Position numbers and translations under genes: made by a program. The notes under the pieces are model-generated. The model was not told where the DNA came from, searched no databases, and worked only from the letters and a program-made list of their open reading frames with translations. This document shows, in pieces, positions 16,211-52,537 of a stretch of 64,000 bases of DNA. This DNA comes from Escherichia phage AV109. The stretch is taken from sequence record OR352939.1. One strand, written 5' to 3'. Position 1 is the first letter of the stretch. Each line of letters begins with the position of its first letter.

Positions 16211-16218
16211 TATAAATA
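16211..16218 (+). promoter_or_regulatory. T4-type late promoter TATAAATA for uvsW
   Basis: exact TATAAATA 30 nt upstream of the uvsW ATG. Confidence 0.65.
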
Positions 16219-16247: not shown

Positions 16248-17762
16248 ATGACTGACATTAAAGTACATTTTCATGATTTTAGTCACGTGCGCATTGAATG
16301 CGACGAAAGTACGTTTTACGAACTTCGTGACTTTTTTAGCTTTGAAGCCGATGGGTACAAATTCAACCCGCGTTACAAATATGGGAACTGGGATGGTAGA
16401 ATTCGTCTTTTAGATTACAACCGTTTGTTACCATATGGACTTGTAGGACAAATAAAAAAGTTCTGTAGCAATATGAGTTATTCTGTATGGATTGACCCTA
16501 AAATCTTTGAGACCGAAGACCTTACCAGAGAAGATTTTGACGCATGGCTTTCTAAACAAGAAATTTATTCGGGCAACGCCAAAATCGAACCACATTGGTA
16601 TCAAAAAGATGCAGTGTATGAAGGACTAGTTAATCGTCGTCGAATTTTAAACCTTCCGACATCAGCAGGTAAATCACTAATCCAAGCACTTTTAGCTCGA
16701 TATTATCTAGAGAACTATGAAGGTAAAATTCTCATTATCGTCCCTACAACAGCATTGACAACCCAGATGGCTAATGATTTTGTTGATTATCGCTTGTTTA
16801 GTCATTCGATGATTAAGAAAATTGGCGGTGGTGCTGATAAAGCAGACAAATCTAAAAACGACGCTCCAATTATTGTTGGCACATGGCAAACGGTAGTTAA
16901 GCAGCCTAAAGAATGGTTCTCTCAGTTCGGTATGATGATGAACGATGAATGCCACTTAGCAACAGGCAAAAGTATTTCTTCAATCATCGCAGGATTAAAT
17001 AATTGTATGTTTAAATTCGGTTTATCTGGCTCATTAAGAGACGGAAAAGCCAATGTAATGCAGTATGTAGGCATGTTCGGCGAAATCTTCCGTCCTGTTA
17101 GCACGTCTAAATTAATGGAAGATGGACAGGTAACTGAGCTTAAGATTAATAGTATTTTCCTTCGTTATCCGGACGAATTCACCGTTAAATTAAAAGGTAA
17201 AACATACCAAGAAGAAGTTAAAATTATTACCGGACTAAAACGTCGTACAAAGTGGATTGCTCAACTTTCGGTCAAATTGGCTAAGAAAGACGAGAACGCC
17301 TTTGTAATGTTTAAACACGTTACACACGGTAAAGAAATATTTGAAGCTATTAAAGAGCTTGGATACGAAAAAGTTTATTACGTATCAGGTGAAGTTGATA
17401 CTGAAACACGTAACGCGCTTAAAGTCATGGCAGAAAATGGTAAAGGCATTATTATTGTCGCATCATATGGAGTATTCTCTACTGGTATTTCAGTCAAGAA
17501 TCTTCATCATGTTATTTTTGCTCATGGTGTTAAATCAAAAATTATCGTACTTCAAACCGTAGGTCGTGTGCTTCGCAAGCATGGTTCTAAAGCTGTTGCT
17601 ACAGTTTGGGATCTCATCGACGATGCAGGTGTAAAACCTAAATCATTAAATACTAAAAAGAAGTATACTCATCTTAATTACTTGTTAAAACACGGTATTG
17701 ATCGTATCCAACGTTACGCTGATGAGAAATTTAACTATGTAATGAAAACAATTAATTTATAA
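16248..17762 (+). CDS. uvsW: UvsW SF2 DNA helicase
   Basis: 504 aa; Walker A-like PTSAGKS and DECH box; matches T4 UvsW in size and position. Confidence 0.93.
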   Translation: MTDIKVHFHDFSHVRIECDESTFYELRDFFSFEADGYKFNPRYKYGNWDGRIRLLDYNRLLPYGLVGQIKKFCSNMSYSVWIDPKIFETEDLTREDFDAWLSKQEIYSGNAKIEPHWYQKDAVYEGLVNRRRILNLPTSAGKSLIQALLARYYLENYEGKILIIVPTTALTTQMANDFVDYRLFSHSMIKKIGGGADKADKSKNDAPIIVGTWQTVVKQPKEWFSQFGMMMNDECHLATGKSISSIIAGLNNCMFKFGLSGSLRDGKANVMQYVGMFGEIFRPVSTSKLMEDGQVTELKINSIFLRYPDEFTVKLKGKTYQEEVKIITGLKRRTKWIAQLSVKLAKKDENAFVMFKHVTHGKEIFEAIKELGYEKVYYVSGEVDTETRNALKVMAENGKGIIIVASYGVFSTGISVKNLHHVIFAHGVKSKIIVLQTVGRVLRKHGSKAVATVWDLIDDAGVKPKSLNTKKKYTHLNYLLKHGIDRIQRYADEKFNYVMKTINL

Positions 17763-17776
17763 GGGCTTCGGCCCTT
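17761..17776 (+). terminator. UUCG-loop stem-loop between uvsW and uvsW.1
   Basis: AAGGGC-TTCG-GCCCTT inverted repeat; no T-tract, so probably an RNA structure rather than a terminator. Confidence 0.35.
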
Positions 17777-17787
17777 AGGAGATAAAA

Positions 17788-18021
17788 ATGGTACTTGAAT
17801 TTAAACAATTTTTATACGAAGCATCTATTGACGAATTTATGGGTAAAATTGCTAGTTGTCATACCCTAGAAGGGCTTGAAGAATTGGAAGCTTATTATAA
17901 GAAACGTATAAAAGAAACGGAATTAAAAGATACAGATGATATTTCTGTCAGGGATGCCTTAGCAGGTAAGCGTGCCGAACTTGAAGGCGACGATGATGAG
18001 GATGTGGAAGAAGACTTCTAA
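17788..18021 (+). CDS. uvsW.1: UvsW.1-like small acidic protein
   Basis: 77-aa ORF directly after uvsW, as in T4. Confidence 0.75.
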   Translation: MVLEFKQFLYEASIDEFMGKIASCHTLEGLEELEAYYKKRIKETELKDTDDISVRDALAGKRAELEGDDDEDVEEDF

Positions 18022-18030
18022 TTAAAAAAA

Positions 18031-18053
18031 GGCCCGACCTTTTTGGAAGGGCC
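18031..18053 (-). terminator. rho-independent terminator for the minus-strand small gene
   Basis: GGCCC...GGGCC hairpin followed on the minus strand by U7. Confidence 0.55.
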
Positions 18054-18079
18054 AAAAACCATAGGCAAAAAAGGTAACA

Positions 18080-18247
18080 CTATAGTAAAAGTTGGGTTTC
18101 GTTCAATTGCTCTTCTGAACTTTCTGAAACCGGCAATTGTTGGACATAATTATAACAAGGACCAGGATGTGCTGGACCTTTGTCTGTTTCAACAACCAAT
18201 GCAGAATCGATTGGAGTTTTACAGACAACACAAATCTTATCTGACAT
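18080..18247 (-). CDS. small protein (55 aa) with CxxC pair; uvsY.-1-like position
   Basis: ATG preceded by AGGAGG at 5-nt spacing; below the 60-aa cutoff of the ORF track; AT-rich third codon positions. Confidence 0.55.
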   Translation of the reverse strand: MSDKICVVCKTPIDSALVVETDKGPAHPGPCYNYVQQLPVSESSEEQLNETQLLL

Positions 18248-18279
18248 GATTGCCTCCTAAGTTGAAATTACATATCTAT

Positions 18280-18504
18280 TTATACAACTCTCATATGCAT
18301 ATCAATGCCCATATCTTTAGAATAAAAATATTCATCAAGATATCCGGCAAATTTTCCTTTAATATAAAGGACGTCTTCGCCACAAGGATGGTCTGCCAGG
18401 ATACGAATATCCTGACGACGTAGACGATACTTTTCCATTAAGAATTTAATTTCAGTTTCAAATTCTTCGTCATTATTAAAGGCATCTTCAATTGAATAAC
18501 GCAT
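18280..18504 (-). CDS. hypothetical protein (uvsY.-2-like position)
   Basis: 74-aa ORF overlapping the uvsY stop by 1 nt. Confidence 0.6.
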   Translation of the reverse strand: MRYSIEDAFNNDEEFETEIKFLMEKYRLRRQDIRILADHPCGEDVLYIKGKFAGYLDEYFYSKDMGIDMHMRVV

Positions 18505-18917
18505 TATTGCCCCGCTTCAAATTCTCGCATATCCTGGATATGTTTAAGTGCAAAACTACGAGACTTAACTGCGTCAAGTGCACCACTACAGAACTCAAGT
18601 AAAATTCCCCAGTATTGTAAAGTAGTCTCTATTTTAAGCACATCTTTATCTGCAGCCAGGACAGTTTTCATTTCAGATTTCTCGTATCGGTCCATACTGA
18701 ATTCATCACCGTCACCTCGTCCCGAGTAGTAGTCTAATCTTGCTTTTAGAGCAGTTTTCTTCTGAGTCTCTATACGCAACATTTCTTTACGAATAAATGA
18801 GTGCTTACGTAGCCATTTGCTGTATAACTTAACATTATTCGCCGTCTCATATTGCAACTTTGTCATATCAATAGCTAAGTCTGCGTCTAACTCTTCCTGT
18901 AAATCTTCCAGCTTCAT
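18504..18917 (-). CDS. uvsY: recombination mediator UvsY
   Basis: 137 aa, identical length and position to T4 UvsY; middle promoter upstream. Confidence 0.88.
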   Translation of the reverse strand: MKLEDLQEELDADLAIDMTKLQYETANNVKLYSKWLRKHSFIRKEMLRIETQKKTALKARLDYYSGRGDGDEFSMDRYEKSEMKTVLAADKDVLKIETTLQYWGILLEFCSGALDAVKSRSFALKHIQDMREFEAGQ

Positions 18918-18971
18918 AATATTCTCTCTTTAACTAATAATCTCCCGGCTGTATCGGAAGGACCTAAAACC

Positions 18972-18996
18972 ATTATACATAGGTCGCCTTGAAGCA
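18972..18996 (-). promoter_or_regulatory. MotA-dependent middle promoter for uvsY
   Basis: minus-strand TGCTTCA (MotA box) followed after 12 nt by TATAAT. Confidence 0.5.
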
Positions 18997-19395
18997 TTAC
19001 ACTCTATTGCTTGACGCTAACTGAAGTTTAATTTGTTCAATATCGTCAGGGTTGTCTACGACCGAAAATCTAATCTCTACTATAACCGTATAGTCATCAT
19101 ATACTGGCGTTACACTTACAGAAAGTTTGTCGATGCGTGGCTCATAGTTACGAACAGCTGCCTGGATATTACGCTCAATCGTATCGGCTGTAAGTGGTGT
19201 CATGTTCTCGAAAAGTTCATCAACCAAATCGCAACCAAATTCAGGGTCGAAGGGGCGTGAGCCTTTTCTAGTTGTCACTATGCCAAGAAGACTATTTTTA
19301 ATAGAACGAAGTCCTACAGAACGAGCAACGTCCTTGTTCCAATCCATACGCATTTCTGGGTCGATATCTGAATAAAGTTTATTGATATTAGACAT
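18997..19395 (-). CDS. 25: baseplate wedge protein (T4 gp25-like)
   Basis: 132 aa, same length as T4 gp25, overlaps gene 26 stop. Confidence 0.88.
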   Translation of the reverse strand: MSNINKLYSDIDPEMRMDWNKDVARSVGLRSIKNSLLGIVTTRKGSRPFDPEFGCDLVDELFENMTPLTADTIERNIQAAVRNYEPRIDKLSVSVTPVYDDYTVIVEIRFSVVDNPDDIEQIKLQLASSNRV

Positions 19396-20039: not shown

Positions 20040-20047
20040 TATTTATA
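20040..20047 (-). promoter_or_regulatory. T4-type late promoter (TATAAATA on minus strand) for gene 26
   Basis: plus-strand TATTTATA 19 nt upstream of the gene 26 start; overlaps the gene 51 promoter. Confidence 0.65.
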
Positions 20048-20051
20048 AATA
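20044..20051 (+). promoter_or_regulatory. T4-type late promoter TATAAATA for gene 51
   Basis: exact TATAAATA 18 nt upstream of the gene 51 ATG. Confidence 0.65.
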
Positions 20052-34423: not shown

Positions 34424-34720
34424 TTACATAAGAAGCAAACGTTCTACCGGAGTACCATCAACCGAAATTACTTTATCAAGGCGGAAAGAACGCCACTGAC
34501 CTAACTCGGTATCGAATGCTCGAACTGATTCACGAGGTTCAGAACGAACTTCTGTTGATGGGTTACTATTTTCATATTTGACTTCAAGTTCGTCGCGGGA
34601 AGCAAACATCGTACGAACATCACCGTTAGCCTTTTCAAATACAACACAATGAACGCCTACAGACAGAATAGTTTTAATACATTCACGAAGAACCATAGTT
34701 TCTTGTTCAGTTAAAATCAT
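34424..34720 (-). CDS. hypothetical protein (31.1-like position)
   Basis: ORF track starts at a GTG at 34732; the ATG at 34720 overlaps the cd stop. Confidence 0.5.
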   Translation of the reverse strand: MILTEQETMVLRECIKTILSVGVHCVVFEKANGDVRTMFASRDELEVKYENSNPSTEVRSEPRESVRAFDTELGQWRSFRLDKVISVDGTPVERLLLM

Positions 34721-34721
34721 A

Positions 34722-35303
34722 TTATTCACCACAAAAGTTTCGAATTTGTTCCCAATTCAGAGAACGAAGATTATTACGAGAGTACTGAATTACTTCAATA
34801 CCGGCTTTTTTTAGAATGTCTGCCCAATTTTCAGGAGATCGGTCATATAATTCTGCATATACAACCTTTTTAATACCTGACTGTGTAATAGCTTTAGTGC
34901 AATCAGGACATGGAGAAAGCGTCGTATACAACGTAGCACCTTCAATAGAATTACCTTTACGAGCTGCAAACAAAATTGCATTCAATTCCGCATGGATTTC
35001 GTTATTAGCAGACCATGCACTATGAGCGGCCCGATGTTCTTTAGCCAAAACAAAATTATCCACCCGTCCAAATGCTGTAGTGCCTTCTTTATGCCCAGCA
35101 ACGATGACCGGGCTTGGTTTATTCTTCAACCAACCATTTTCGGATGCATGTTCGCAACAGTTTGTACCACCTGAAGGAGAGCCATTATAACCTGTAGAAA
35201 TAATGCGTCCATCTTTTTCAATGACGGCGCCAACTTTCCATGAACAACATTTTGATTCTTGAGAAATCAGATAAGCAATCTGAAGATATGTGCTAGCTTT
35301 CAT
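34722..35303 (-). CDS. cd: dCMP deaminase
   Basis: 193 aa; zinc-binding HAE...PCxxC motifs (EIHAELNAI, SPCPDCTKAI); same length as T4 Cd. Confidence 0.93.
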   Translation of the reverse strand: MKASTYLQIAYLISQESKCCSWKVGAVIEKDGRIISTGYNGSPSGGTNCCEHASENGWLKNKPSPVIVAGHKEGTTAFGRVDNFVLAKEHRAAHSAWSANNEIHAELNAILFAARKGNSIEGATLYTTLSPCPDCTKAITQSGIKKVVYAELYDRSPENWADILKKAGIEVIQYSRNNLRSLNWEQIRNFCGE

Positions 35304-43684: not shown

Positions 43685-45949
43685 TTAAAGCTTACAAGCA
43701 GAACAATCTTCAGCTTTAGGTGTTTCTAATTCATAGTCATCTGTACCTGACCCATCACGAGTGTTATGATAGTAGAGGTTTTTTCCGCCAAAGTACCAGA
43801 AGTAAAGCAGATCGTCAAGCATTACTGACATTGGCACTTTACCTTTCTCAAATACTGCAGGGTCATAGTAAGTATTAGCAGAAGCAGATTGGCACACCCA
43901 TTTCAACATGATAGCAACTTGGGTCAAATAAGGTTTATTACCTTTCTTAGCAAGTTTCCACGCGTAGTCGTAAAGACTCATGTTATGTTCTATATTAGGA
44001 ACAACCTGTCGGAAGTTGCCTTCTTTAGATTCTTTAATACTTACAGGTCCACGAGGTGGTTCTATACCATTTGTGCTATTTGAGACTTGACTGCTTGACT
44101 CACAAGGCATGAGTGCAGACAACGTTGAGTTACGAATTCCATGTTCTTTGAGTTCAGCTCGAAGTTCTTCCCAGTCACAGACATAGTTCGGGGCTGCGAT
44201 TTGGTCAATCTTTTTATTGTACCAGTCGATAGGTAATTCGCCTCTAGACCATTTAGTGTCTGAATAATACTCACAAGGTCCTTTTTCTTTGGCGAGTTTG
44301 ATTGATGCTTTGATAAGGCCATATTGCAATCTCTCGAACAATTCATGGGTCAAATCGTTAGCGTCTTCATATGAAGCAAAGTTAGAAGCTAACCATGCAG
44401 CATAGTTCGTCACACCAACACCGAGATTTCGACGCTTTTTAGCTTTTAAAGCTTCTGGAACCGGATAATCTTGATAGTCTAACAGGTTATCAAGTGCACG
44501 TACTTGTACTTCAGCAAGTTCATTAATTTTATCTTGGTCTTGCCAATCAAATTTATCTAATACAAAAGCAGATAATGTGCATAAACCAATTTCAGCATCA
44601 GGACCATTCACATCATTAGTTGGAATAGCGATTTCACAACATAAGTTACTCTGACGAATTGGAGCTTTTTCACGAATAAACGGAGTGTAGTTATTCGTGT
44701 TATCAACAAACTGTGGATAAATTCGAGCAGTGCCAGAACGTTCAGTCATGAACAATTCAAAGAGTTCTAGTGCTTTGATTCTTTTCTTTCTGATTGTTGG
44801 GTCTTTTTCAGCTTTCTCATAAAGCTCACGGAATTTATCTTGATCTTCAAAGAACGAGTAGTATAGTTCACCTGACATTTCGTGAGGGCTAAATAAAGTA
44901 ATATAATCATTTTTACCAAGGCGTTCCATCATAAGGTCATTAATCTGAATTCCGTAGTCCATATGTCGAATACGGTTTTCATCCACGCCTTTGTTATTTT
45001 TCAGAACTAATAGGTTCTCTACTTCTAAGTGCCACATCGGATAATACGCTGTAGCAGCACCACCACGAATACCACCTTGAGAACAAGATTTTACTGCAGT
45101 TTGGAAATGTTTCCAGAATGGAATAACACCCGTATGTCGGACTTCACCCATACCGATCTTAGAACCTTCTGCACGAAGCATACCAACGTTGATACCGATA
45201 CCAGCTCGTTTAGAAATATATTCAATAATTGATGCTGAAGTTTTGTTAATAGATTTTAACGAATCACCGGCTTCAATAACTACACAACTAGAGAACTGGC
45301 GAGTCGGAGTGCGAGCACCTGCCATAATTGGAGTAGGCAATGAAACTTGATGAGTAGAAACGGCATCATAAAAACGAATAATATGTTTCAAACGGTCATG
45401 AGTTTCGTCTTGATGTAAGGCCATACCAATAGCCATGATAGCAAACTGTGGAGTTTCATAAATCTTCCCAGTTGTTTTATCTTTAACCAAGTATTTTTCT
45501 TTAAGCTGCATAGCACCAGCATAAGTCAGGTCAAAGTCTCGTTCATGTTTAATCTGTGAATCGAGATAAATGATTTCTTCTGCTGAATATTTAGACAACA
45601 ACTCAGGGTCATATTTGCCTTCATTAACACAGTAAGAAATATGGTCGATAAAAGCAGGCGGTTCAAACTGCCCATATACATCTTTACGAAGTGCAAACAT
45701 TAGCCCTTTGGCGGCGACATACTGATAATCGGGTTCTTCGACAGAAATCAAGTTAGCTGCAACTTTAATACAAATCTTCTGAATATCTTTGGTGCTCATC
45801 CCATCAACCAGATGAGTCTTAATTTCTTCATACAATTCGTATGGGTCGATTTGTGTTCCTTCACACTGCCAAGTTAATACTTGAATAATTTTCTGTGCAT
45901 CAAAATTTTGGGATACACCTGAATTTTTCACTACTTTAAAATTATACAT
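43685..45949 (-). CDS. nrdA: ribonucleotide reductase large subunit NrdA
   Basis: 754 aa, same length as T4 NrdA; near-identical to recalled T4 sequence over long stretches. Confidence 0.97.
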   Translation of the reverse strand: MYNFKVVKNSGVSQNFDAQKIIQVLTWQCEGTQIDPYELYEEIKTHLVDGMSTKDIQKICIKVAANLISVEEPDYQYVAAKGLMFALRKDVYGQFEPPAFIDHISYCVNEGKYDPELLSKYSAEEIIYLDSQIKHERDFDLTYAGAMQLKEKYLVKDKTTGKIYETPQFAIMAIGMALHQDETHDRLKHIIRFYDAVSTHQVSLPTPIMAGARTPTRQFSSCVVIEAGDSLKSINKTSASIIEYISKRAGIGINVGMLRAEGSKIGMGEVRHTGVIPFWKHFQTAVKSCSQGGIRGGAATAYYPMWHLEVENLLVLKNNKGVDENRIRHMDYGIQINDLMMERLGKNDYITLFSPHEMSGELYYSFFEDQDKFRELYEKAEKDPTIRKKRIKALELFELFMTERSGTARIYPQFVDNTNNYTPFIREKAPIRQSNLCCEIAIPTNDVNGPDAEIGLCTLSAFVLDKFDWQDQDKINELAEVQVRALDNLLDYQDYPVPEALKAKKRRNLGVGVTNYAAWLASNFASYEDANDLTHELFERLQYGLIKASIKLAKEKGPCEYYSDTKWSRGELPIDWYNKKIDQIAAPNYVCDWEELRAELKEHGIRNSTLSALMPCESSSQVSNSTNGIEPPRGPVSIKESKEGNFRQVVPNIEHNMSLYDYAWKLAKKGNKPYLTQVAIMLKWVCQSASANTYYDPAVFEKGKVPMSVMLDDLLYFWYFGGKNLYYHNTRDGSGTDDYELETPKAEDCSACKL

Positions 45950-46577
45950 AATAATTCCATGTTGGATAATTTGATGATTTTAGACGGCGTCTAACCGTTT
46001 GGGTGCTCATAGATAAAATTATTGACGCTTCATTTAATGTATCATATATTACGTCGTTTATAATTACTTTCTTTGCAAATGGATTCTTAGCTCCTATCAT
46101 AGCGTTAGAAATAGCTTGCTTAGTTGATTCTTTTAATGGGACTCCTTTAGAAATTTTTGTTTTAATTTTTATATTGTATTGTCCGCGTTTTTTACCTAAT
46201 AAAGAATTTCGTATCTTTTCTTTAGTCTCTTCAGATTTAACATGTCCTAGTTTGGAACGAGATATTTTATCTTTTGTTTTTTGGTCTAATTTTCGCCCTT
46301 TAAGCAAATCAACCATTTTTGCTCTAGCCCATCCAAATTCTTTATTATTTCTAGAACTCATTAAATTAACCGCGGTTGCTAAACCTAAATTGTTCGGATA
46401 TATTTTTAATAAAAGAAGATGAGCCAAATAATGTTCTGAATATGTTAATTTAACTAGATTGTATGACTCATTGGTGCCACCTAAACATTTTGGGATTATA
46501 TGATGCCATTCACCATCGATATCTTCAAAATTTCTTTCTTTATTTACTAAGTTTTTATATATTTTTAAATAATCCAT
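45942..46577 (-). CDS. free-standing HNH homing endonuclease with NUMOD-like repeats
   Basis: HNH motif EWHHIIPK...NLVKLTYSEHYLAH; repeated ETKEKIR/STKQAIS motifs; track start 46589 is a GTG, ATG at 46577; overlaps nrdA start by 8 nt. Confidence 0.8.
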   Translation of the reverse strand: MDYLKIYKNLVNKERNFEDIDGEWHHIIPKCLGGTNESYNLVKLTYSEHYLAHLLLLKIYPNNLGLATAVNLMSSRNNKEFGWARAKMVDLLKGRKLDQKTKDKISRSKLGHVKSEETKEKIRNSLLGKKRGQYNIKIKTKISKGVPLKESTKQAISNAMIGAKNPFAKKVIINDVIYDTLNEASIILSMSTQTVRRRLKSSNYPTWNYYV

Positions 46578-46653
46578 AGTATAATCCACTTTGTAGTATC
46601 AACGGGATAGTATTTATCCCGTTAATTTTATTATACACTTTTAAACTGAAGCG

Positions 46654-46909: not shown

Positions 46910-47221
46910 TTATACCGCCATTTTAGCTTTGATAGCTGGATGTGATTCGTAATTTTTAAGAACGAAATCAGAATGTGTCATCGTTCCGGTAACCCAGTCC
47001 ATTTGGATTTTTGTAGGCCAATTCTCAAAATTACTAGGCCAATTAATTTCAAGAGAACATAACTCTTTAGGTTCACGACGAAGAACTTCTTTGCATTGTT
47101 CTACATGATTGCTGTAGATATGCGTGTTGCCGCCTGAGAACACTAAATCACCTGGGATAAGGTTACACATCTTCGCTACAATATGTGTCAAGGCAGCGTA
47201 CGAGGCGATGTTGAACGGTAG
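46910..47221 (-). CDS. td: thymidylate synthase, exon 2
   Basis: LPFNIASYAAL.. continues the ThyA sequence; 3' splice site ..AUAAUG|CUA as in T4 td. Confidence 0.92.
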   Translation of the reverse strand, partial: LPFNIASYAALTHIVAKMCNLIPGDLVFSGGNTHIYSNHVEQCKEVLRREPKELCSLEINWPSNFENWPTKIQMDWVTGTMTHSDFVLKNYESHPAIKAKMAV

Positions 47222-48237
47222 CATTATGTTCAGATAAGGTCGTTAATCTTATCCCGGAATTATATCCAGCTGCATGTCACCATGCAGAGCAGACTATATC
47301 TCCAACTTGTTAAAGCAAGTTGTCTATCGTTTCGAGTCACTTGACCCTACTCCCTAAAGGGATAGTCGTTAGGCATTTATGTAGAACCAATTCCACTTAT
47401 CAGATTTTACACGGTAAGTAACTAATCCTGATGAAATTTCAAAATGTCTAGCCGCATCGGCTGCACATTCAAAAATAATCCCATCGCATGAAATCTTTTT
47501 GATGTTAGCTGGCTTTTTGCCTTTCATCTTTTCAGATAGTTTAGTTTTAGTTTTTTCTGAATGTTTGTGATTAAAGAACGGGTTATTTTCACCTGAACGT
47601 TTTCGGCACTTTCCACAAGTATCGGCCGAAGATGGTATGCGAACACCGCATTTACAAAACTTGTGGTTTTCTGGATTCCATCGGCCATTTTTACTTCCGT
47701 GTTTACCATAAAGAGCTTTCCGACCATCAGGACCAAGCTTAAGCATCTTAGCTTTAACAGTTTCAGCTCGTTTCTTAGCAATTTCTTCTTTTAATGGATG
47801 ATTTGAAAGCACATCGCCAAAAGACGCATCAGCAATATTATATCCATTAATTTTAGAATTTAGCTCTTTAATCCAAAAATTTTCTCGTTCAATAATCAAA
47901 TCTTTCTCATATGGAATTTCTTCCAGTATAGAGCATTCAAAAACATTACCATGTTTATTAAAAGACCTTTGAAATTTTATAGAAGAGTGAACACCGTTTT
48001 CAAGGTCTTTAAAATGTCTCTTCCATCTTTTCTCAAAATCTTTAGCACTTCCAACATACACTTTACCGTTTAAAGTGTTTTTAATCTGATAAATTCCGCT
48101 TTTCATAAACACCTCTTTTTATATAGAAGTATTTATTAAAGGGTAGTCCTACAATTTAGCACGGGATTGTCTACTAGAGAGGTCCCCCGTTTAGATAGAT
48201 TACAAGTATAAGTCACCTTATACCTAGGCCTAAATTA
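47222..48237 (-). mobile_element. group I intron in td (1016 nt) carrying I-TevI
   Basis: 5' end UAAUUUAGGCCUAGGUAUAAGGUGACUUAUACUUGUAAUCUAUCUAAACGGGG matches the recalled T4 td intron; length 1016 as in T4. Confidence 0.92.
47369..48106 (-). CDS. I-TevI: GIY-YIG homing endonuclease I-TevI (intron-encoded)
   Basis: 245 aa from the ATG at 48106 (track starts at an upstream GTG); near-identical to recalled T4 I-TevI. Confidence 0.93.
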   Translation of the reverse strand: MKSGIYQIKNTLNGKVYVGSAKDFEKRWKRHFKDLENGVHSSIKFQRSFNKHGNVFECSILEEIPYEKDLIIERENFWIKELNSKINGYNIADASFGDVLSNHPLKEEIAKKRAETVKAKMLKLGPDGRKALYGKHGSKNGRWNPENHKFCKCGVRIPSSADTCGKCRKRSGENNPFFNHKHSEKTKTKLSEKMKGKKPANIKKISCDGIIFECAADAARHFEISSGLVTYRVKSDKWNWFYINA

Positions 48238-48786
48238 ACCTAAGAAAACATCTACACTGCGTTGATACCATTGTAAATCAAGATGTCCATTACGCACATT
48301 AAATTGATAGAACATATGACAAGGAGGAAGAGCCATTTGATTTATTTCAGCCGGATTCCAGGCAGAAACAATTTGACGACGATCAGTTGGTAATTTTTTA
48401 ATACGGTCGATTGTTTCAACTAATTGGTCTACACCACCAAAATCACGCCATTGCTTACCATAAATAGGACCAAGTTCGCCGCTATGATATCCAAGGTCTT
48501 TTGCCTGATTTTCATAGTTGTCGTCCCAAATAGTTTTACCTTGAATAAGACTACCATGAGTACGAATACGCAAATCATTAACATTTGTAGAGCCAGACAT
48601 GAACCATAATAGCTCAGCAATACAAGCTTTCCATGCAAGCTTCTTGGTTGTTACTGCAGGAAATCCTTTAGTCAGATCCCATCGCAATTTAGTTCCGAAC
48701 AGGGCAATAGTGCCGGTACCTGTACGGTCGTCTGTTTCGTAGCCATTTTCTAGGATATCATTAATCAGGTATTGGTATTGTTTCAT
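48238..48786 (-). CDS. td: thymidylate synthase, exon 1
   Basis: 183 codons ending ..QRSVDVFLG immediately before the intron UAA. Confidence 0.93.
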
Positions 48787-51207: not shown

Positions 51208-51861
51208 TTAATACTTACATGATTTGATTGTTTCTATGAACAATTTCTTAGCAGCATTTCTATCGATTTGAAGTATTTTTCGATATGCCTTTAATTTGGT
51301 AGAATAATTTTGCCAGACTAAGTTATCGGTGAGTTCGTCGTGCTTATCTATAATATTCAAAAATGAGTCCAACAATAAGAAAGTCTCAAATGAAATTATA
51401 TTGCTTTGTAGCAATTTGAATATGTAGCTCGACTGAACGTTGCTATTATAATCAAATATCTCTTGAAGCGCACTAACTTCAACTTTCTTACTGAAATAGT
51501 AGATGTTACGTACGTCTTCAGCAAACGACTCTTTAGCTTGTTTGAGACGTCCAATATATTCCCTATAGAAAACTAATGCATCAGCGTCTGATATCTCACC
51601 AATCCATGCGTCTTGGTTAGCAACTAAGTTGCTTATGAATATCAAGGTGAGTTCCTTCAATTTATATTTCTCTGCTAGTTTTTCAAAGAAATATTTATCT
51701 CGGCGTTTTTGATACGCATTATCCGAAACACGCATGCACCAGTTATATTTGATTACGTCATACCGACCACCAAAGTGGTTTTTGCACATCAAGTATAGTT
51801 TATATACTGATTTTCCATTAATATAACGTTCTCCGTCAGGAGGCATGCGTATTTTAATCAT
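51208..51861 (-). CDS. 59: helicase loader (T4 gp59-like)
   Basis: 217 aa; near-identical to recalled T4 gp59. Confidence 0.95.
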   Translation of the reverse strand: MIKIRMPPDGERYINGKSVYKLYLMCKNHFGGRYDVIKYNWCMRVSDNAYQKRRDKYFFEKLAEKYKLKELTLIFISNLVANQDAWIGEISDADALVFYREYIGRLKQAKESFAEDVRNIYYFSKKVEVSALQEIFDYNSNVQSSYIFKLLQSNIISFETFLLLDSFLNIIDKHDELTDNLVWQNYSTKLKAYRKILQIDRNAAKKLFIETIKSCKY

Positions 51862-52537
51862 AGTTCCATCCAGGCCATTTTGAAGATTTAAGTCTATATG
51901 TAACTAAAGACGCAGAAATATTAAAAACATTTGAAACTTCTTTACACGAGGCGTATTTTATACCATCAATAATTATAGGTTTTTGTTTTTTAATAGTTCT
52001 TTCTTTAGAATGCGGCTTTGAATTTGCTATTCTAAGAGCTTCTTTGGTTGAATCAGGCATCGGCTTATTCGTTTTTCGCCCTTTTCGGACTTTACTCAAG
52101 GCCAATTTGTGAGCTTCAGATAGTTTCTTACCCTTATTAGGTGACGGTATTTTTCTTTCTAGTCTTGTTTTAGATACTTTAGCCTTAGTCTCTTCAGATC
52201 TAGGTTTACCTAATTTAGAAAGTGAAATAGACCTTTTAGCTTCATCACTTTGTTTTTTACCAGGACCACCTTTACCACCGGGAACTAAGTTATAAGTATC
52301 ATCTCGCAAAACAAAATCTTCATTAACCAATTCTGCTTCTTTTTTATAGGCGTCCTTGTCATTATCATATTCATAAAGAATTTCGGTATAAAAATTTTTT
52401 AGTCCATATTTAGCTTTGGCCGCTAATATAGCGCGGCCTGATCCAATATACCAATCTTTCTCTTTATGTTTTTTGTGTACGCCTATATAAATTTTACCAT
52501 TTATTTTATTGGTAGTTTTATACACAACGTATTTCAT
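51854..52537 (-). CDS. free-standing GIY-YIG homing endonuclease (Seg-like) between genes 33 and 59
   Basis: N-terminal YKTTNKINGKIYIG GIY-YIG motif, NUMOD-like Lys/Ser repeats, C-terminal DNA-binding region; ATGA overlap with gene 33 and 8-nt overlap with gene 59. Confidence 0.85.
   Translation of the reverse strand: MKYVVYKTTNKINGKIYIGVHKKHKEKDWYIGSGRAILAAKAKYGLKNFYTEILYEYDNDKDAYKKEAELVNEDFVLRDDTYNLVPGGKGGPGKKQSDEAKRSISLSKLGKPRSEETKAKVSKTRLERKIPSPNKGKKLSEAHKLALSKVRKGRKTNKPMPDSTKEALRIANSKPHSKERTIKKQKPIIIDGIKYASCKEVSNVFNISASLVTYRLKSSKWPGWNYD

Follow-up and report, generated by a model that had tools for sequence, protein, structure and literature searches.

uvsY.-2 of Escherichia phage AV109: a conserved 55-residue protein with a predicted zinc finger and a C-terminal tail, encoded close to uvsY

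The 64,000-nt stretch of Escherichia phage AV109 analysed here (sequence record OR352939.1; henceforth, the window) is from a T4-like phage of the genus Mosigvirus. On its minus strand, at 18080..18247, it carries a short open reading frame (ORF) which is, near certainly, the Mosigvirus orthologue of the phage T4 gene uvsY.-2. This is not a new gene: uvsY.-2 is long known and already catalogued in the T4 family, and the remaining interest lies in what its conserved, fitness-relevant mini-protein does. The best overall explanation, to which we would give an even chance, is that the protein consists of a zinc finger and a tail and acts as a docking accessory factor of the UvsY recombination-mediator module. 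The gene and its neighbours are located as follows.

18080..18247, minus strand: uvsY.-2 coding sequence, 55 amino acids and the stop codon; Pfam DUF2685
18280..18504, minus strand: uvsY.-1, 74 amino acids, phrog_1541; upstream gene in the same transcription unit
18504..18917, minus strand: uvsY, recombination mediator, 137 amino acids
17788..18021, plus strand: uvsW.1, 77 amino acids, Pfam UvsW-1; convergent neighbour
16248..17762, plus strand: uvsW, helicase, 504 amino acids

The encoded protein, MSDKICVVCKTPIDSALVVETDKGPAHPGPCYNYVQQLPVSESSEEQLNETQLLL, matches positions 1-55 of the 55-position Pfam profile DUF2685 (PF10886) with its residues 3-55 (E = 9.9e-32; 109.4 bits against a gathering cut-off of 25), as well as phrog_1043 (E = 7.5e-30). 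The surrounding DNA (17700-18950) matches 690 phage records, with 100% identity to Escherichia phage AV118 and 99.8% to AV114. The latter specifies an identical (100%) protein, annotated as a hypothetical protein, between hoc, inh, uvsW and uvsW.1 on one side (plus strand) and uvsY.-1, uvsY and genes 25 and 26 on the other (minus strand). In the T4 record (AF158101), the counterpart is listed as “uvsY.-2 conserved hypothetical protein” at 114496..114663, minus strand (AAD42525.1; UniProt Q00778). Its product is 93% identical to the window protein over all 55 residues, from which it differs by four conservative substitutions (window to T4: A26V, V35I, Q36K and Q37E) and nothing else. The T4 gene occupies the same slot between uvsY.-1 and uvsW.1, with the same layout of ribosome-binding site, TATAAATA octamer and terminator, and the gene order is identical in the window, AV114 and T4: uvsY.-2 lies downstream of uvsY and uvsY.-1 and is convergent with uvsW.1 and uvsW. 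It is the last gene of a leftward unit that comprises gene 26, gene 25, uvsY, uvsY.-1 and uvsY.-2.

The frame is under strong purifying selection. Between the window and T4, the gene shows 14 synonymous and four non-synonymous differences, corresponding to a ratio of non-synonymous to synonymous substitution rates (dN/dS) of 0.059, and the ratio is 0.12-0.23 in comparisons with JS98, Kpn6N and Acinetobacter phage Maestro. In an alignment of 55 diverse DUF2685 members (A2; 34% mean column identity), C6, C9, H27, G29, C31 and E42 are invariant and K10, G24 and L53 nearly so; the window protein has all the family-invariant residues and the C-terminal Leu-Leu motif. A preliminary description of the ORF, made from the DNA letters and an ORF list, had named proteomics of infected cells and the conservation of the frame and its Cys residues as ways to check it. 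Both come out in favour of the ORF: the dN/dS values are 0.059-0.23 and C6 and C9 are invariant in the 55 sequences, and the T4 protein is known from mass spectrometry. In time-resolved omics of T4 infection, UvsY.-2 (Q00778) falls in the class “middle RNA / late protein” (PMC9697503 supplements). Knock-down of T4 uvsY.-2 with the dCas13d-based CRISPR interference (CRISPRi) method CRISPRi-ART was scored “Semi-Fit”; the effect was confirmed with single guides and complemented in trans (PMC11879866). The complementing construct is named sfGFP_linker_T4_uvsY.-2 (PMC11879866), which we read as an N-terminal tag. We conclude that uvsY.-2 is a genuine, translated gene.

Its flanking signals and an overlapping frame on the opposite strand are listed below.

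18258..18253, minus strand: Shine-Dalgarno sequence AGGAGG, followed by the 5-nt spacer CAATC and the ATG at 18247
18284..18277, minus strand: TATAAATA, the T4 late-promoter consensus, 30 nt 5′ of the uvsY.-2 ATG; overlaps the uvsY.-1 stop codon
18024..18053, minus strand: intrinsic terminator, hairpin GGCCC..GGGCC (18053..18031) and T7 (18030..18024), between the convergent uvsY.-2 and uvsW.1
18043..18249, plus strand: antisense ORF of 68 amino acids; artefact, not a gene

The preliminary description was accurate about the ORF and its surroundings. The 55-residue minus-strand frame is present at 18080-18247 and had dropped out of the supplied ORF list only through a length cut-off of 60 amino acids. 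The reported AGGAGG does lie 5 nt upstream of the ATG; the arrangement AGGAGG-N5-ATG occurs twice in the window against 0.27 instances expected, and T4 has GAGGAG at the equivalent position. The codon bias, described as phage-like, is borne out by a codon model trained on the 26 longest ORFs of the window, in which the uvsY.-2 frame scores +13.1 bits, the best of the six frames, and the frame of the antisense ORF +1.5. The window DNA is AT-rich and holds 370 ORFs of at least 35 amino acids, and a 55-codon frame by itself is not significant; we judge this one to be more than chance because of its conservation. The 68-residue ORF on the plus strand had been taken for a probable antisense artefact, rightly so: it has no Pfam or PHROG match and its frame is broken by two to four stop codons in T4, JS98 and Kpn6N.

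The hairpin with seven Us that had been noted at 18031..18053 forms in the minimum free energy structure, in which the 71-nt stretch has -17.8 kcal/mol (z = -2.0), and is followed by the T7 run. It was found on direct folding of the stretch; a consensus terminator scan did not report it, because the stem has an internal loop. A hairpin with a T run is present 3′ of the uvsY.-2 homologue in T4, Aeromonas phages and Krischvirus E26 as well, and in the window the terminator is common to uvsY.-2 and the convergent uvsW.1. An Rfam search of 17500-19200 gave no match to a known RNA element. At the other end of the gene, we infer from the sequence that the TATAAATA octamer could act as a late promoter of uvsY.-2. 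Its 17 copies in the window compare with 7.6 expected ones, so that any one copy could be a chance occurrence. It is present upstream of uvsY.-2 in T4 too, and in Acinetobacter phage Maestro within a different intergenic context; no copy was found upstream of the DUF2685 gene in the Aeromonas, Vibrio and Krischvirus relatives examined. Other copies in the window include one at 16211-16218 (plus strand), 30 nt upstream of the uvsW start codon, and an overlapping divergent pair between genes 26 and 51 (20040-20047, minus strand, and 20044-20051, plus strand).

With tblastn, the protein was found in 1251 phage records, the hosts including Escherichia, Klebsiella, Shigella, Acinetobacter, Vibrio and Aeromonas; hundreds of phage records list it as a hypothetical protein. 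An exhaustive profile search of 1.84 billion representative proteins returned only 56 clusters. Three of them (P0055, of 1774 amino acids, P0069 and P0078) were rejected as DUF2685 fusions, being false positives due to low-complexity or repeat sequences; nearly all the others are stand-alone proteins of 51-66 amino acids, and two (P0025 and P0026), a read-through product and a fragment, are uninformative. The homologue in Aeromonas phage L9-6 (KY290956; locus L004, 2977-3153) has no annotation in its record, and that in Acinetobacter phage Maestro (L003, 3001-3168) is labelled “homology to T4 uvsY”, but it is not UvsY.

Two parts of the protein stand out: a putative metal site in the N-terminal two thirds and a short tail at the C-terminus, joined by a conserved motif and a linker.

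18134..18238, minus strand: predicted C2HC treble-clef zinc finger, residues 4-38 (invariant ligands, AlphaFold, Foldseek)
18230-18232, 18221-18223, 18167-18169 and 18155-18157, minus strand: codons of the putative ligands C6, C9, H27 and C31, respectively
18119..18133, minus strand: residues 39-43, PVSES, a hydrophobic-S/T/N-E-S motif with the invariant E42
18083..18106, minus strand: tail, residues 48-55, LNETQLLL-COOH, acidic/hydrophobic, a putative docking motif

The CxxC pair that had drawn attention to the ORF is real (C6 and C9) and is one half of an invariant C-x2-C-x17-H-x3-C site, completed by H27 and C31. These two residues and the C-terminal tail are as diagnostic of the family as the CxxC pair and were absent from the preliminary description, as was the identity of the gene as uvsY.-2. 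Two AlphaFold runs gave models with a mean predicted local distance difference test score (pLDDT) of 74.9 and 80.2; in both, residues 1-40 reach 82-90, with beta-hairpins at 4-26 and a helix at 30-37. The top Foldseek matches in the PDB are halves of LIM domains and the zinc finger of eL24/Rlp24, all of them treble-clef structures, with E values of 0.3-1 that are not significant, as expected for about 30 residues. A profile search of the PDB yielded the zinc finger at the C-terminus of Vps39 (6ze9; 25 residues aligned with E = 0.002), the local similarity residing in the uvsY.-2 pattern C-x-V-C-K-x-x-I ... G-x-V-H. A lenient Pfam scan of the 55 members gave sub-threshold matches to DUF2175, zf-Vps39_C (nine of the 55), zf-FCS and zf-FLZ (two each), LIM and RING. 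With the single protein as the query, a PDB sequence search produced nothing but noise (lysostaphin repeats and a ciliate protein), and Foldseek against viral predicted structures retrieved uncharacterised family members only, with no functional lead.

We predict from alignment and model that residues 1-38 form a C2HC treble-clef zinc finger of the TRASH/FCS/LIM-half kind, and zinc binding is, on the same grounds, highly probable. Treble-clef fingers, among them those of the TRASH/FCS-MYM type, the LIM halves, the N-terminal finger of eL24 and that of Vps39, are built alike: the CxxC knuckle sits on a beta-hairpin, and the other two ligands are found where a short helix begins. The matches to these families lie below thresholds (Foldseek E > 0.2; Pfam below gathering) and do not establish homology. 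The TRASH signature is C-x2-C-x19-22-C-x3-C, unlike the site in DUF2685, in which the third ligand is a His and the spacer 17 residues. A further difference from the treble-clef families is that DUF2685 is a stand-alone phage protein of 55 amino acids with an acidic tail. The earlier suggestion of a small zinc-binding protein is thus backed in silico by the invariant C2HC set in 55 sequences, a confident treble-clef model and weak profile matches; the further word “regulatory” was a guess and is still one. E. coli YacG, a 65-residue acidic zinc-finger inhibitor of DNA gyrase, offers a comparison: it is also a tiny acidic protein with a zinc site (CxxC...CxxxC) and an acidic tail, and it docks on an enzyme rather than on DNA, but its ligands are four Cys and its tail is another one. 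The YacG family is not among the weak Pfam matches listed for the 55 members, no profile-profile comparison having been run.

The window protein (6 kDa) has a pI (isoelectric point) of 4.3 and a net charge of -5.4, and the family medians are 4.4 and -6.3. Such strong acidity argues against nucleic-acid binding and makes protein-protein docking most likely. After the motif with E42, the acidic linker varies in length and sequence within the family, and residues 41-50 have a pLDDT of 49-58. The tail that follows conforms to the family consensus L-x-E-T-Q-L-L-x, or E-T-Q/E-L-L-hydrophobic, with L53 in at least 90% of the sequences, and is kept from Escherichia phages to Vibrio, Aeromonas and Acinetobacter phages and metagenomes. 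Examples are ETQLLL, ETELLL, ETQLLM, ETQLLNG and EQTMLLM. The position of the Gln is variable (E, T, V, H and others) and none of the 55 members has an aromatic residue in the tail. In the deeper AlphaFold run (model 2), confidence recovers over the last five residues, to a pLDDT of 70. Without exception, the tail forms the free C-terminus, and all natural extensions of DUF2685 are N-terminal or in the linker; none extends the C-terminus. A free conserved tail together with N-terminal-only extension is a pattern typical of a C-terminal docking motif.

One of these extended proteins occurs in Proteus phages of the genus Bragavirus (phrog_26998; L014, 1501-1881, Pm5461 and relatives), where a 72-residue N-terminal domain is fused with the DUF2685 module into a protein of 126 amino acids. 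The N-terminal domain occupies the uvsY.-1 slot and overlaps the end of uvsY by 4 nt; it has no similarity to uvsY.-1, to YqeY-like proteins or to any annotated PHROG. We considered this fusion as a Rosetta-stone lead and dropped it, as it shows only that an N-terminal extension is tolerated.

The gene neighbourhood was compared in 20 lineages, 11 cultured and nine informative metagenomic ones. In 17 of them, uvsY is at most two genes away from DUF2685. DUF2685 comes after uvsY in 13 of these lineages and before it in the other four, all metagenomic (L015, L020, L022 and L027). That the two genes stay adjacent even where their order is inverted carries more weight than the collinearity common to T4-like genomes. 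In five metagenomic lineages (L015, L020, L022, L023 and L025), we verified 4-nt overlaps between uvsY and DUF2685, either ATGA or GTGA, which is, as far as the sequences tell, the classic arrangement for translational coupling. Two further genes recur. The helicase gene uvsW is the convergent neighbour in most loci, and a YqeY-like gene (GatB/YqeY domain, PF09424) lies directly upstream of DUF2685 in seven lineages. The YqeY-like genes are located as follows.

L004, 2504-2974: YqeY-like gene
L008, 2516-2983: YqeY-like gene
L005, 2412-2825: YqeY-like gene
L018, 5548-5976: YqeY-like gene
L020, 4564-5004: YqeY-like gene
L027, 3557-3970: YqeY-like gene
L028, 1803-2195: YqeY-like gene
L029, 2-382: YqeY-like gene

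In Vibrio phages, one small ORF separates the YqeY-like gene from DUF2685, and an ATGA overlap joins the two genes in L020. In T4 and Mosigvirus, the corresponding slot is taken by the unrelated uvsY.-1 (74 amino acids), and close T4 relatives also lack a YqeY-like gene there. In some records, the YqeY-like gene is labelled “tRNA amidotransferase”.

How such a protein might work can be sketched as follows. A role in a recombination module that involves UvsY, YqeY or UvsW is close to an even call. The zinc finger would serve as a compact, rigid module for contacts, and the C-terminal tail would slot into a hydrophobic groove on the partner, after the fashion of the acidic A-domain of gp32 or of the tails by which gp33, gp55 and gp43 bind the clamp. 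Of the partner systems, the most probable one would be UvsY, along with the YqeY-like protein where present and with UvsW nearby; UvsY as the direct partner is, taken singly, a doubtful proposition. Judging from the layout and the T4 data, uvsY.-2 would be expressed as the last gene of the uvsY unit and in addition from the putative TATAAATA late promoter, transcription ending at the hairpin and T7, and UvsY.-2 might adjust, from the middle to the late period of infection, how UvsX is loaded with the help of UvsY and how recombination-dependent replication proceeds.

A more specific version, about which we are equally doubtful, is that UvsY.-2 is a hitherto unrecognised zinc-finger subunit or regulator, produced in step with UvsY, whose tail docks on the UvsY (or UvsX) site for the acidic domain of gp32, thereby buffering or timing UvsY as the phage switches to recombination-dependent replication. 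UvsY binds the acidic C-terminal A-domain of gp32 (PMC3016280). It is also dose-sensitive, stimulating UvsX at stoichiometric levels and inhibiting it at higher concentrations (PMC2673438), and poorly soluble (PMC10899321). These three properties make an acidic, co-translated partner or buffer plausible, which could occupy the A-domain site on UvsY or buffer free UvsY. The A-domain, which docks UvsY, UvsX, gp59 and Dda, is likewise an acidic segment with a Leu-rich end (gp32 of the window ends in DLDDLLAGL). Nevertheless, there is no alignable similarity between the A-domain and the UvsY.-2 tail beyond composition, and the part of gp32 that binds Dda is a helix, residues 248-270, not the extreme terminus (PMC11551737). 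By analogy, an A-domain-like tail on a UvsY-linked protein would be a plausible competitor or mimic, the mimicry being pure inference. Charge complementarity with UvsY, which we also considered, was dropped, since the UvsY homologues are mostly mildly acidic.

Several observations weigh against a UvsY accessory factor. In the T4 CRISPRi-ART data, uvsY, uvsY.-1 and uvsW are all “Not Fit” and uvsY.-2 is “Semi-Fit” (PMC11879866): knock-down of uvsY.-2 lowers fitness, and that of uvsY did not score. A simple positive cofactor of UvsY is hard to reconcile with this pattern, which fits a restrainer or chaperone or, equally well, unequal knock-down. Gene order is generally conserved in T4-like phages, hence the synteny with uvsY is suggestive only. 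Two cultured lineages keep the gene with no uvsY within 3 kb: the Aeromonas Biquartavirus (gene 25, yqeY-like, DUF2685) and the Acinetobacter Hadassahvirus (gene 25, DUF2685). The YqeY-like gene is equally tightly linked in its seven lineages and uvsW is convergent in most loci, and the true partner could be the YqeY-like protein or UvsW. Moreover, UvsY lacks an overall basic character, most homologues having a pI of 5.2-6.6, which leaves no simple charge complementarity.

With UvsW/UvsW.1 or the YqeY-like protein in place of UvsY as its partner, UvsY.-2 would be a small cofactor in late-phase processing of R-loops or branched DNA. This is unlikely in our estimation, even though uvsW, with or without uvsW.1, is convergent in nearly all loci long enough to show it, TATAAATA lies some 30 nt upstream of the start codons of both uvsW and uvsY.-2, and the YqeY-like gene of the seven lineages sometimes overlaps DUF2685 by ATGA. 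The rearranged loci L020 and L027 speak against UvsW, as uvsY and another gene part DUF2685 from uvsW there while DUF2685 still adjoins uvsY. In the loci examined from Vibrio and Acinetobacter phages, DUF2685 is kept, but no UvsW.1 was seen encoded beside uvsW, and T4 and its close relatives do without a YqeY-like gene in that slot. We find it improbable that UvsY.-2 is a ligand of the sliding clamp, gp45, with the tail as a variant clamp motif that competes with gp43, gp33 and gp55 or recruits a factor, and so shifts the balance between replication and late transcription. The architecture does resemble that of gp33 and gp55, in which a flexible linker of variable make-up connects a folded body with a short C-terminal motif of hydrophobic and acidic residues (PMC2988020, PMC7892883); the UvsY.-2 tail is attached through a variable linker of low pLDDT, and the protein accumulates late. 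The tails can be compared directly: TNTLDFLL in the window gp33, SLDFLFG in T4 gp43, SLDFLYEAND in gp55 and NETQLLL in UvsY.-2. A C-terminal acidic stretch with three hydrophobic residues occurs in the window only in gp33, UvsY.-2 and one ORF of unknown function, located as follows.

34424-34732, minus strand: ORF of 102 amino acids, phrog_1086, ending in VERLLLM

Yet the first Leu is conserved in the clamp motif L-D/E-F-L-Y/F, and an aromatic residue is present in all but a few of 120 gp55 homologues; the 55 DUF2685 tails have no aromatic, Thr replaces the first Leu, and the consensus (S/T/N)-L-(D/E)-F-L-(Y/F/L) does not accommodate ETQLLL. Among the 120 gp55 homologues, the tails read LDNFY in Aeromonas and LEQFY in Serratia phages, but the UvsY.-2 tails of these phages retain two Leu/Ile and a hydrophobic residue (ETQLLM and EVQLIV, respectively). 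With no motif match and no co-variation with the gp55 tails, we demoted the clamp to a rival idea; in addition, the DUF2685 gene is never linked to gene 45.

The remaining candidates lead away from recombination. A host-directed anti-defence or takeover factor, with its tail docked on the host beta clamp, a protease adaptor or the RNA polymerase, is very unlikely. The end Q-L-L-L-COOH loosely recalls hydrophobic C-terminal degrons and the bacterial beta-clamp-binding motif QL[SD]LF, but we ruled out a QLxLF-like reading, given that the Gln of the tail is not conserved and an aromatic is absent. Accessory anti-defence genes usually vary in presence and position, whereas DUF2685 has a fixed place in the core recombination module across Escherichia, Klebsiella, Acinetobacter, Vibrio and Aeromonas phages. 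On the other side, the authors of the CRISPRi-ART study propose that some inhibitors of host defence may be found among the unknown Semi-Fit genes (PMC11879866 supplement). A factor of baseplate or virion assembly, co-expressed with genes 25 and 26, would agree with the position downstream of these genes in most cultured T4-like phages, the late-promoter consensus, the late accumulation of the protein and the Cys-rich motifs that gp26 and gp51, encoded nearby, carry as well. It is nonetheless highly improbable: in rearranged metagenomic genomes, DUF2685 travels with dda, yqeY-like and uvsY and not with baseplate genes, and in Vibrio phages, it follows uvsY with no adjacent baseplate genes. We see the slightest chance for a sequence-specific DNA- or RNA-binding regulator. 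Many small zinc fingers do bind nucleic acids, and the eL24 and GATA fingers are among the weak Foldseek matches, but all structural matches have E > 0.2, K10 is the only conserved basic residue, and the charge of -5.4, the pI of 4.3 and the family median charge of -6.3 are those of an acidic protein.

Returning to UvsY.-2 as an accessory factor of the UvsY module, few other T4 genes whose function is wholly unknown have a fitness effect that has been both demonstrated and complemented (PMC11879866), and uvsY.-2 is conserved across the T4-like phages of many hosts. Handles for experiment are the four candidate ligands, the invariant Glu, the free C-terminal motif and the apparent tolerance of N-terminal tags or fusions. 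Candidate partners would be taken in the order UvsY, the YqeY-like protein, UvsW and gp45. If UvsY.-2 did regulate UvsY, it would be a new component of a recombination system known from textbooks and put to use in isothermal DNA amplification as well. The in vitro presynaptic system of UvsX, UvsY and gp32, including commercial mixes for recombinase polymerase amplification, would then lack a natural fourth component.

Other features of the window and of the compared loci were noted in passing. UvsW.1 (77 amino acids, 17788-18021, plus strand) has a net charge of -14 and ends in DDDEDVEEDF-COOH, an acidic stretch closed by a Phe, which recalls the C-terminal tails of bacterial single-stranded DNA-binding proteins. 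At 46910-48786 (minus strand), an ORF that looks like the C-terminal part of thymidylate synthase (46910-47224) and another that looks like its N-terminal part (48235-48786) flank a 247-residue GIY-YIG ORF (47369-48112), the layout seen in T4 td, where a group I intron carries a homing endonuclease; at the gathering threshold, Rfam gave no group I intron match there. Further putative homing endonucleases of the window are of the GIY-YIG type (51854-52537, minus strand, 227 amino acids, between gene 59 and gene 33) and HNH-like (45942-46589, minus strand, 215 amino acids). In locus L018 (metagenomic contig SRR23929262_407, 6591-9361), uvsW seems to be split into an N-terminal part with Hint/intein-splicing domains, a NUMOD3/TnsA-like ORF and a separate Helicase_C, and thus looks as if it had been invaded by an intein or a homing endonuclease.

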